In this document: positions 24,173 to 27,758 of the stretch, one piece after another
Position numbering within the stretch: the first letter of the stretch is position 1
Layout: every line of letters starts with the position of its first letter
Source of the DNA: Escherichia coli
GTDB taxonomy: Bacteria; Pseudomonadota; Gammaproteobacteria; Enterobacterales; Enterobacteriaceae
DNA: 64,000 nt
NCBI RefSeq assembly: GCF_030384885.1
Contig: NZ_CP128613.1
Reading direction: 5' to 3' (one strand)
The notes under the pieces: model-generated
What the model was told of the DNA's origin: nothing
What the model saw: the letters and a program-made list of their open reading frames with translations, nothing else
Databases searched by the model: none
Made by a program: the position numbers and the translations under genes

Positions 24173-25186
24173 TTAAAATAGCATTTGAGTCAAATAGCCC
24201 ATCAAGATAGCCATACCTAAGATAACCGTCAGGAATGCAACTATCATCGGTATTCTGAACATTGATTTAAGTAATATCACTTCCGTCAGACTTGCGCCGG
24301 CACTGCCGATGATTAATGCCATTAATGCTCCCAGACCCATTCCTTTTGTCATCAGAACAGATGCCAGAGGGATAACCGCCTCTGCCCGGATATACAGCGG
24401 GATTCCGACAACGGCGCTCAATGGGATGGCGAAGGGATTATCTGCCCCTGCATGAGCGGCAATCCACGCTGAGGGAATAAAGCCATAAATAAAAGAGCCT
24501 ATTAATACCCCTAACAAAAGATATGGCAGTACATCTTTAAACTGTTGCAACGCATCTTTGGTGGCTAGTTTTATGGGATTAATACTTACCACAGCTTTGG
24601 TACTGCAACAGTTTACTACCGGTTTCTCAATGGCTTTAGCCGCTGGACTACAGCAACTCACTTTTATTGGCGTATATGTCGTCCCCGGCGAAGTTTTGGC
24701 TGGAGAGCAACAATTTGCTGATGAGCTTTTACTGGCAATGATATGACGTTCAAATCTCAGAGAATCCAGGATAATACTGGCAAGTACGGAGACGCCGGCG
24801 GCGATAATCGCGTACAACAAGGTAACTTTCCAACCAAAGGTCACCCACATTAACCCGACGATAATGGGATTAAGTAACGGTGAAACAAATAAAAAAGTGA
24901 GAGTCGGACCAAACCCGGCTTTCGCTGACAACAATCCACGTAGCATGGGTATTGTCGAGCAACTACAGAACGGGGTAACGGCTCCCAACAGAGCAGCCAG
25001 GAGATAGCCTCTCCCTTTTCTGGCCCCCATCATCTGCTGGATTTTATGGTCTGGCACCTTTTGTCTTATCAGGCTGACACCGGCACTAATCACCATAAAC
25101 AGCAAAGAAAGCTCGACGGCGAGAAACACAAACATCTCTGCGGCATCTTGCAGCATCGCAAGCCAACTACTCATAAGTAACCTCAT
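24173..25186 (-). CDS. ArsP-like permease (DUF318-type) with TPFCSCS motif and a Cys-rich loop
   Basis: 337-aa multi-TM ORF; motif AVTPFCSCSTIP; hydrophilic loop with three CC pairs (NCCSP, VSCCSP, VNCCS); divergent from an ArsR-family gene. Confidence 0.75.
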   Translation of the reverse strand: MRLLMSSWLAMLQDAAEMFVFLAVELSLLFMVISAGVSLIRQKVPDHKIQQMMGARKGRGYLLAALLGAVTPFCSCSTIPMLRGLLSAKAGFGPTLTFLFVSPLLNPIIVGLMWVTFGWKVTLLYAIIAAGVSVLASIILDSLRFERHIIASKSSSANCCSPAKTSPGTTYTPIKVSCCSPAAKAIEKPVVNCCSTKAVVSINPIKLATKDALQQFKDVLPYLLLGVLIGSFIYGFIPSAWIAAHAGADNPFAIPLSAVVGIPLYIRAEAVIPLASVLMTKGMGLGALMALIIGSAGASLTEVILLKSMFRIPMIVAFLTVILGMAILMGYLTQMLF

Positions 25187-25196
25187 TGAATAAAAC

Positions 25197-25256
25197 TATA
25201 TTTCCAGAATAATCGAAATGAAGTTCAGATCAAGATATTTCTGGTATTATCGAAAT
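25197..25256. promoter_or_regulatory. candidate operator: two about 23-bp direct repeats in the divergent permease / ArsR-like promoter region
   Basis: TATATTTCCAGAATAATCGAAAT (25197-25219) and GATATTTCTGGTATTATCGAAAT (25234-25256). Confidence 0.35.
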
Positions 25257-25281
25257 ATCAACCAGACAGAGGGGGTGACAC

Positions 25282-25602
25282 ATGCAATTGGAAGAGGTCG
25301 CTAAGGCACTGAAAGAGTTAGGTCATCCGACCCGTTTGTTCATATTTAAGCATCTGGTCAAAGCGGGGGAACAAGGGTTGCCGGTCGGTGAGTTGCAAAA
25401 GCAGCTTGGGATACCCGGCTCTACACTCAGTCACCATATTTCAGCACTGGTATCGGTAGGGTTGGTCAAACAAAACCGTGAGAGTCGGACGCTGATGTGT
25501 GTTTCGCAATACGCAATGCTGGAAGCGATAATTGAATTTTTATGTGAGGAGTGCTGCGTAAACAGCAAAACAGATGGCGAAGGAGCCACGAAGAACAAAT
25601 AA
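25282..25602 (+). CDS. ArsR/SmtB-family metalloregulator with C-terminal Cys cluster
   Basis: 106-aa ORF; winged-helix HTH (VGELQKQLGIPGSTLSHHISALVSVGLV); C-terminal FLCEECC. Confidence 0.8.
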   Translation: MQLEEVAKALKELGHPTRLFIFKHLVKAGEQGLPVGELQKQLGIPGSTLSHHISALVSVGLVKQNRESRTLMCVSQYAMLEAIIEFLCEECCVNSKTDGEGATKNK

Positions 25603-25622
25603 GGGGGCATATCCCCCTATAG

Positions 25623-27404: not shown

Positions 27405-27758
27405 TTAACTACAAATATTCTTACTGTCTGCGGAACAATTTTGTCTGACGAGGTTACGGACAATCACCTGAACCTTTTCCTGTTCGCATCGCCAGGCCTG
27501 CTCAATAATTTTCGCCGCCCATGCTGGAATATGCGGCGATAAGCGATAATGAACCCACTTACCCTGCTTGCGGTCCAGCAATAGCCCACTTTCACGCAGT
27601 AATGCCAGATGGCGGGAGATCTTGGGCTGCGACTGATCGAGGGCAGTGCAGAGATCGCAGACGCATAACTCTCCCAGTTCGCTGAGCAGTAAAACGATGC
27701 CCAGACGGGTTTCATCGGCAAGAATTTTGAACAATTGGATGGGTAACAGAAATGACAT
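27405..27758 (-). CDS. arsR: arsenic-responsive repressor
   Basis: 117-aa ORF with ELCVCDLC As(III)-binding motif in HTH. Confidence 0.95.
   Translation of the reverse strand: MSFLLPIQLFKILADETRLGIVLLLSELGELCVCDLCTALDQSQPKISRHLALLRESGLLLDRKQGKWVHYRLSPHIPAWAAKIIEQAWRCEQEKVQVIVRNLVRQNCSADSKNICS

Follow-up and report, generated by a model that had tools for sequence, protein, structure and literature searches.

Two pseudo-palindromic repeats between an ArsR/SmtB regulator gene and an arsP-like permease gene of Escherichia coli are probably operator sites of the regulator

In a 64,000-nucleotide stretch of the Escherichia coli contig NZ_CP128613.1 (hereafter the window), two genes annotated in RefSeq only as 'permease' (24173-25174, minus strand) and 'ArsR/SmtB family transcription factor' (25282-25602, plus strand, 106 aa) are arranged divergently, and the short region between them carries two similar repeats. 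We were curious to know which protein recognizes these repeats and to which signal the gene pair would respond. An earlier note on this DNA had proposed that the repeats form an operator for the adjacent ArsR-family repressor controlling both genes, and our comparative analysis supports this proposal at the sequence level, as the motif stays within the promoters of the regulator and permease genes and the site count tracks the gene order. We put the probability at about 0.8 that the two repeats are operator sites through which the 106-aa ArsR/SmtB repressor would control both its own gene and the permease gene, which offers a likely function for the pair. The sites themselves are real; they go beyond chance expectation, are conserved, and accompany the genes for the regulator and the permease.

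Reading of the sequence places repeat 1, TATATTTCCAGAATAATCGAAAT, at 25197-25219 and repeat 2, GATATTTCTGGTATTATCGAAAT, at 25234-25256; the two 23-mers are identical at 18 of 23 positions and are separated by a 14-bp gap (25220-25233). A repeat search returned the same pair as 22-mers that are 82% identical and lie 37 bp apart from start to start. The 107-bp intergenic region was shuffled 2000 times with preservation of dinucleotides, and the best non-overlapping 22-mer pair was recorded each time; 18 matches or more were reached in none of the 2000 shuffles (the best pair averaged 12.9 matches and never exceeded 17). The description of two 23-bp repeats 14 bp apart is thus borne out by the sequence, the repeat search and the shuffles alike. 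The pattern ATTTC-N8-TCGAAAT occurs in the 64-kb window at these two places only. Each repeat moreover contains the pseudo-palindrome ATATTTC-N10-GAAATAT, and the site around repeat 2 (site 2, regulator side, 25234-25259, core 25237-25256) is a perfect 8-10-8 inverted repeat, GATATTTC-TGGTATTATC-GAAATATC. An arm as long as that of site 2 was reached by chance in 75 of 2000 shuffles, and this inverted repeat, considered by itself, is only suggestive. The partly inverted centres of the repeats, also pointed out in the earlier note, are indeed present: in reverse complement, TTCCAGAA reads TTCTGGAA, and this agrees with TTCTGGTA at 7 of 8 positions. Hence the term direct repeats is accurate, although the elements are better described as two pseudo-palindromic dimer-type sites. 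Site 1, on the permease side (core ATTTCCAGAATAATCGAAAT, 25200-25219), was found by the repeat search as well as by a position weight matrix (PWM), and its core is kept in an alignment of loci with the same 37-bp spacing. It fits the permease-side family consensus TATATTTCYAGAATnnTCGAAATATA and scores 32 bits on the plus strand versus 30 bits on the minus strand. Site 2 scores 35 bits and is identical in a plasmid copy of the locus that is 84% identical.

The adjacent regulator is, by its sequence, a standard ArsR/SmtB winged-helix protein. It matches the Pfam profiles HTH_20 (53.8 bits) and HTH_5 (29 bits), both above the cut-off, and the NCBIfam model HTH_metalloreg (61.2 bits, cut-off 55), and its sequence matches in the PDB are all ArsR/SmtB members. 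Its homologues number in the hundreds. An alignment of 19 diverse homologues revealed an invariant helix S47-T-L-S-H-H52 together with invariant C73, E90, C91, and C92; across the 80 loci of our comparative set, C91/C92 are present in all and C73 is invariant. The invariance of the recognition helix STLSHH across the family is matched by that of the operator half-sites. For ArsR/SmtB dimers, imperfect inverted repeats serve as operators, as in the case of SmtB at smtA/smtB and the CzrA-type 12-2-12 operators, with two sites in the divergent region; their half-sites are of the TGAA type, whereas those described here read ATTTC and lie further apart (N10 between 5-7-bp arms). The inverted repeat in site 2 and the family dyad ATATTTC-N10-GAAATAT agree with an operator of this type, and the overlap with promoters does so by consensus match only.

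The comparative set comprises 80 loci with regulator homologues, obtained from a scan of one genome per species, and covers Escherichia, Aeromonas, Vibrio, Photobacterium, Shewanella, Endozoicomonas, Psychromonas, Thalassotalea, Pseudovibrio, Desulfobulbus, and others. The motif is seen by eye upstream of the regulator in nearly all of them. The operator proposal had been said to fall if the repeats were not conserved in orthologous loci; the motif is kept from E. coli to Aeromonas, Vibrionaceae, Shewanella, Endozoicomonas, and a Desulfobulbus metagenome-assembled genome. We built the PWM from the sites upstream of the regulators and scanned the whole loci (473 kb) at a match cut-off of 14 bits, which gave 132 matches within 400 bp upstream of a regulator and only 10 elsewhere. 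The 10 outlying matches all occur in pairs, 75-150 bp upstream of permease homologues that do not stand divergent to the regulator, with the two members about 50 bp apart (164 bp in one locus). The intergenic DNA around the motif shows no such conservation: an alignment of loci of the 37-bp class (alignment A2; E. coli, plasmid, Aeromonas, Desulfobulbus) has its invariant columns in the two cores, in a TCAA flank, and in the ribosome-binding site, and the rest of the spacer varies. In the 64-kb window, the PWM scan detected no match outside sites 1 and 2, the promoter of the canonical arsR included.

Does the number of sites depend on the permease? Site counts per locus at a PWM score of at least 17 bits indicate that it follows the gene order. 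Among the 42 loci with a divergent permease, 30 have two sites, 11 have three, and a single locus has one, meaning that at least two sites are found in 41 of 42, while the 32 loci without a permease nearby mostly carry one site (23 loci; none in 7, two in 2), and several of the 7 loci below 17 bits still show degenerate copies of the motif. The single site of the permease-free loci lies about 47 bp before the regulator ATG, and an equivalent of site 2 is found at about the same distance in most of the 80 loci. In the three-site loci of Vibrio, two sites 50 bp apart are located near the permease, and the third one lies at -43 relative to the regulator. Most two-site loci show a start-to-start spacing of 49-50 bp; in E. 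coli, the plasmid copy, Aeromonas, and Desulfobulbus it amounts to 37 bp, and in Kangiellaceae to 25 bp. From this distribution, the basic unit appears to consist of two sites for the permease promoter plus one for autoregulation, and in compact divergent regions the regulator-side site would appear to serve both promoters. Cooperativity between sites on one face of the helix was considered and dropped, as the spacings of 25, 37, 49-50, and 63 bp keep no single phase. The operator consensus and its modular layout may be previously undescribed.

The consensus reads TCTAT-ATTTC-YAGAATnn-TCGAAAT-ATA for permease-side sites and AT-ATTTC-TrgTAWTA-TCGAAAT-AT for regulator-side and single-site operators. 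The centre TAWTAT is kept in operators on the regulator side and in single-site ones (T 91%, A 97-100%, T 78-100%, A 61-84%, T 91-100%) and is not conserved in permease-side sites. Since it is limited to the site nearest to the regulator and lies at a fixed distance from the ATG, it fits a -10 element inside the operator. In E. coli, consensus and conservation point to TGGTATTAT (25242-25250, plus strand), in the centre of site 2, as the candidate extended -10 of the regulator promoter. No convincing conserved -35 element was found for this promoter, and the extended -10 within site 2 is the most consistent, albeit unproven, reading of it. To the left of the regulator-side site, two-site loci carry a gTCAA flank (T 72%, C 88%, A 97%, A 84%), which is conserved only together with a divergent permease (C 88% vs. 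35% in single-site loci) and is invariant in alignment A2; on the minus strand, we infer it to be the -35 element TTGAC of the permease promoter. By its position and the conservation of this flank, TTGATC (25228-25233, minus strand) is the candidate permease -35 in E. coli, followed after 16 nt by the candidate -10 TATTCT (25206-25211, minus strand) in the centre of site 1. The corresponding places read TTGATC-16-TATAAT in Vibrio loci and TTGAAA-17-TATTAT in the Shewanella putrefaciens arsP fragment described below.

From these data, a simple mechanism may be proposed. Each pseudo-palindrome of about 24 bp would be bound by one winged-helix dimer. Site 2 would hold the -10-like element TGGTATTAT of the regulator and abut the -35-like TTGATC of the permease, while site 1 would cover the -10-like TATTCT of the permease and its probable transcription start; as the sites overlap elements of both promoters, two bound dimers would shut both back-to-back promoters. 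A trivalent arsenical, most likely methylarsenite (MAs(III)), would then bind to C91/C92 and cause the repressor to leave the DNA, upon which the arsP-like efflux permease and the repressor itself would be expressed. The invariant C73, and C88 in the allele of the window, may add to the arsenical site.

The choice of methylarsenite, which we regard as the rather probable main inducer, is made by analogy with SpArsR from S. putrefaciens 200, a protein that senses methylarsenite but not arsenite and whose type is marked by the pair C101/C102 without a third Cys equivalent to C102 of AfArsR (PMC11868830; PMC13236881). The coding sequence of SpArsR and 222 bp upstream of the S. putrefaciens arsP were printed in a 2025 biosensor paper, in which the arsP fragment, driving gfp in E. 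coli K-12 lacking arsRBC, was repressed by SpArsR and was induced to 73% of the no-repressor control at 1 µM trivalent monomethylarsenic (MMAs(III)) and to 9% at 50 µM As(III) (PMC12124457). SpArsR (Sput200_1227 / Sput200_1226 locus) is about 54% identical to the E. coli regulator over residues 15-92 (tblastn), and the two proteins have the same recognition helix, IPGSTLSHHISAL. C91/C92 of the E. coli protein correspond to C101/C102 of SpArsR (DQCC) and C73 to C83, and both genes adjoin an arsP-type PF03773 permease gene. The E. coli regulator thus possesses the vicinal Cys pair and lacks an equivalent of AfArsR C102 (C88 and C73 are also present), since no Cys follows C92 in its tail, VNSKTDGEGATKNK; a divergent PF03773 gene and the shared motif are seen at its locus, and control of the permease would follow by analogy. 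The S. putrefaciens arsP fragment carries the motif twice, as ATTTCTGGAATTATGGAAAT (26.7 bits) and as ATTTCTGGTATTATCGAATT (29.5 bits), the latter just before the arsR ATG and with the first 22 bases of E. coli site 2 in common in one consecutive run; a degenerate third copy lies about 50 bp from ATTTCTGGAATTATGGAAAT. The two systems differ in that the S. putrefaciens intergenic region is about 220 bp long with its two strong sites 108 bp apart, whereas the E. coli sites are 37 bp apart within 107 bp, and in that SpArsR has a 10-residue N-terminal extension, while the E. coli allele in the window has the extra C88. The suggestion of As(III)/MAs(III) as ligands in the earlier note fits these comparisons, as SpArsR, to which the regulator is homologous, is MAs(III)-selective and represses a fragment that shares the motif. 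Judged from its sequence, the E. coli pair is probably a copy of the SpArsR-type arsR plus arsP methylarsenite-sensing system studied in Shewanella, and hence a kind of system that is already known.

Other characterized ArsR proteins are more distant in one respect or another. AfArsR from Acidithiobacillus ferrooxidans (PDB 6J05) is the closest solved structure by sequence (E 3.8e-14), and its As(III) ligands C95/C96 (NCC) align with C91/C92 of the E. coli protein; however, the E. coli tail offers nothing equivalent to the third ligand, C102, and AfArsR is without a Cys at the position of C73. Assignment of the window protein to type 2, defined by the AfArsR triad C95/C96/C102, was rejected because of this missing third Cys. 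The MAs(III)-responsive NdArsR from Noviherbaspirillum denitrificans HC18 shows about 34% identity and shares the CC that ends the last helix as well as a Cys at the C73 position, and its promoter has ATTTCCAGTATTTTGAAAT; yet this is a single site with TTGAAAT in place of the E. coli TCGAAAT, the recognition helix (STLAFHLRELVS) differs, and NdArsR controls the methyltransferase gene arsM (arsRM operon) rather than a permease. The canonical E. coli ArsR of arsRBC, encoded at 27405-27758 of the window and 2 kb from the regulator, is likewise an arsenical-responsive repressor of the ArsR/SmtB fold. It has a type 1 site, sensing via ELCVCDLC in the DNA-binding domain, its promoter is without the motif, and its gene lies in an operon with the genes that it controls, in contrast to the divergent arrangement of the 106-aa regulator gene.

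Several points weigh against the proposed control of the pair by its own methylarsenite-responsive repressor. Binding by the E. coli protein, the positions of the promoters and the identity of the inducer are all inferred from sequence comparison. The promoter hexamers are consensus matches only, and a promoter scanner returned the alternatives TTGAAT-16-AATAAT for the regulator and TTGATA-18-TATCTT for the permease; the former is kept in the plasmid copy as TTGACA-16-AATAAT and is not kept in Aeromonas. As the PWM was seeded from the same upstream regions, the high scores there are partly circular, although the silence elsewhere is not. The text of the S. putrefaciens promoter was taken from a PDF supplement that had dropped letters in the coding part, and the promoter may hold small errors as well. 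Besides, ars genes are neighbours in only about 7 of the 80 loci; elsewhere, genes for an extracytoplasmic function (ECF) sigma factor, glutathione S-transferase (GST), MAPEG proteins, or glutathione synthase are found, and the natural inducer may therefore differ between lineages.

The last point leads to the only serious rival, in which the sites are bound as proposed and the inducer is another one, be it As(III)/Sb(III) acting via C88 or C73, another thiol-seeking metal (Cd, Hg, Cu(I), Ag), or an electrophile. We consider such an inducer possible, if on balance unlikely. It would agree with C88 in the window allele versus R88 in other E. coli alleles and with the invariance of C73 in the 80 loci, with the Cys pairs and absence of His in the permease loop, as expected for soft metals, with the nearest NCBIfam models of the permease, which are Cu/Zn and heavy-metal efflux families (both far below cut-off), and with the many loci, marine ones among them, that adjoin glutathione-related or ECF sigma factor genes instead of ars genes. 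Nevertheless, SpArsR, with the same Cys pair and helix, is far more responsive to MMAs(III) than it is to As(III), the E. coli pair directly adjoins arsRBC, and its relatives in Aeromonas, Citrobacter/Hafnia, Desulfobulbus, and Endozoicomonas adjoin arsA, arsD, or an arsH-like gene, all of which speak against the rival.

Binding of the repeats by a different transcription factor, either the canonical ArsR encoded 2 kb away or a global regulator, is highly improbable. The proximity of arsRBC and the AT-richness of the sites, a feature shared with many global-regulator sites, would allow for it, and the assignment of the sites to the 106-aa protein is drawn from comparison; however, the motif accompanies the regulator family into plasmid, Vibrio, Shewanella, and Desulfobulbus contexts without arsRBC, is missing at the canonical arsR promoter and elsewhere in the 64-kb window, and is retained as a single site at a fixed distance from the regulator ATG even where no permease is present. 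The Zur and Fur boxes do not match either: the halves of the Zur box stand in opposite order (GAAAT...ATTTC), and Fur boxes are without ATTTC/GAAAT. Moreover, SpArsR alone represses a motif-bearing fragment in E. coli lacking arsRBC (PMC12124457).

We give hardly any credence to the view that the repeats are a product of chance or mere duplicates of promoter elements (-10, -35, or UP-like), with no repressor binding to them. The AT-rich region and the -10-like hexamers inside both sites are compatible with this view, whereas the failure of 2000 shuffles to reproduce the repeat, the unlikeness of the conserved ATTTC and TCGAAAT to sigma-70 hexamers, and the dyad symmetry kept across distant taxa contradict it, as does the retention of the permease-side half-sites although the -10 shifts within them between the 37-bp and the 49-50-bp classes. 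The chance that the inverted repeats act as RNA hairpins in 5' leaders (attenuator, riboswitch, or stability element) is negligible, for although each site can fold into a short AU-rich hairpin, this idea was rejected in view of no Rfam match at E-values up to 1, a folding energy no better than that of shuffles (z 0.21; 118 of 200 shuffles fold equally well or better), half-sites conserved in sequence across the family with no compensatory changes, and a position upstream of the likely transcription starts.

The Cys residues of the regulator vary in ways that deserve a description. In the window allele, position 88 is Cys (FLCEECC, codon 25543-25545), while Arg88 (FLREECC) is found in other alleles of E. 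coli as well as in those of E. whittamii and the plasmids; a Cys at position 88 occurs independently in homologues from Endozoicomonas. In the window allele, C88 lies one helical turn (three residues) before C91/C92, and C88, C91, and C92 might fall on one face of the last helix and form a three-Cys site. The C-termini of the family are split: in Vibrio (ECCVNEQC) and Citrobacter/Hafnia (ECCSGTDDC), a third Cys follows 5-6 residues after CC, in the latter with the spacing of AfArsR C95/C96/C102, while E. coli, Aeromonas, most Shewanella, and SpArsR form a group without it; C73 is invariant in both groups. We surmise that this split may mark As(III)-responsive versus MAs(III)-selective members. 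A bolder combination holds that the operator and its layout (a pair of sites spaced by about 50 bp at the promoter of the permease plus a single one 47 bp ahead of the regulator's ATG, merging into a shared pair with a spacing of 25, 37, or 49-50 bp where the divergent region is compact) are undescribed, that C73 (SpArsR C83) is an unrecognised part of sensing, and that R88C creates a triad C88/C91/C92 through which inorganic As(III) would be sensed in addition to MAs(III); taken as a whole, it seems to us doubtful, and quite unlikely to hold in every part.

The permease (333 aa) matches Pfam ArsP_1 (PF03773) with an E-value of 9.5e-53 and 179.7 bits versus a cut-off of 32.3. The TPFCSCS motif (Cys-x-Cys) is present as VTPFCSCSTIPM and is kept in all 46 neighbouring homologues, and the central loop is rich in Cys pairs and without His. 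Permease homologues (38-84% identity) stand beside the regulator in 48 of the 80 loci. On this basis, the permease is an arsP-like gene product predicted to mediate organoarsenical efflux. The identities as SO_0444 Cu/Zn efflux protein and as SaoE were both rejected (NCBIfam 108.7 bits versus a cut-off of 300, and 83.4 versus 325); SO_0444 is predicted to be under SO_0443, a putative ZntR orthologue and not an ArsR-type protein (PMC3219624), and SaoE belongs to a selenoprotein locus. Among the homologues in loci L004-L081, the loop between the permease halves ranges from a minimal CGSSC up to four CC pairs with almost no His, and full-length open reading frames span from about 300 to 383 aa. 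This loop variation agrees with the two ArsP size classes noted by Castillo and Saier in 2010, who also recorded ArsP homologues of E. coli, Aeromonas, and Yersinia within ars operons (PMC2963123). Our literature searches on DUF318/ArsP with ArsR returned nothing on the E. coli pair except for this listing of ArsP homologues (PMC2963123), and the chromosomal and plasmid copies in E. coli appear to be uncharacterised in the literature searched.

If the pair is indeed a methylarsenite-inducible efflux module, it would provide a defence against an arsenic-based natural toxin on top of the classical arsRBC, and its promoter and regulator could be used, as they stand, as a biosensor part native to E. 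coli. With the operator consensus, the regulon can also be predicted in hundreds of genomes. The result is an incremental addition to a well-studied family and involves no new principle.

The neighbouring genes in relatives are diverse. In most of the Vibrio loci (15 of 18 matches), an ECF-type sigma factor gene comes directly after the regulator gene in the same orientation, with the reading frames overlapping or abutting (the Vibrio loci concerned are L021-L027, L033, L036, L037, L046, L060-L062, L070, and L075), an arrangement which suggests that the Vibrio regulator may also gate the sigma factor. The regulator is found beside an arsH-like flavin mononucleotide (FMN) reductase gene, arsD plus arsA, or arsA alone in L071, L078, and L079 (Citrobacter, Enterobacter, Hafnia), L007 (Aeromonas), L010, and L057, and in L057 arsA lies upstream of the permease gene. 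Kangiellaceae and some other loci have a eukaryote-type glutathione synthase gene next door; others have GST or MAPEG genes.

The pair is accessory in E. coli, in which the 107-bp intergenic region was found in 2385 of 5426 complete genomes; with the 1.6-kb locus as query, many genomes aligned at the arsC end only. Only 14 records of E. coli contain the intergenic allele of the window at 99% identity or more. A second, diverged version of the pair, about 83-84% identical, resides on 634 PLSDB plasmids from Escherichia, Salmonella, and Klebsiella, most of them conjugative. The host plasmids are large resistance plasmids, and the example L003 (plasmid pMCR1_025943, 4335-5897) illustrates the copy, which is flanked by Tn3, IS1, and IS26 remnants and by mph(A) macrolide resistance genes. 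The plasmid-borne permease has 377 aa and a longer Cys-rich loop; both operator sites are kept, and the -35-like hexamer is improved to TTGACA.

On the E. coli chromosome, the intergenic region with the repeats sits between slp/yhiS' and arsCBR-dinQ-gor. Its length had been given as 95 bp in the earlier note, which holds for the longest permease reading frame with its first ATG at 25186 (MRLLMSSW...); with the start at 25174 (MSSW...) in the annotation of the Prokaryotic Genome Annotation Pipeline (PGAP), it amounts to 107 bp, and this length is more likely. A Shine-Dalgarno sequence GAGG (25181-25184, minus strand) lies 8 nt before the start at 25174, and that of the regulator, GAGGGGG, is located at 25269-25275 (plus strand), with GG kept in alignment A2. 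A yhiS-like open reading frame (22369-23592) adjoins the permease gene; RefSeq treats it as a frameshifted pseudogene, and it is without a Pfam match. On the other side, the regulator gene is convergent with arsC, and a G+C-rich hairpin, AGGGGGCATATCCCCCT (25602-25618), is placed exactly between the two stop codons. The hairpin scored as terminator-like on both strands and is likely a terminator acting in both directions.

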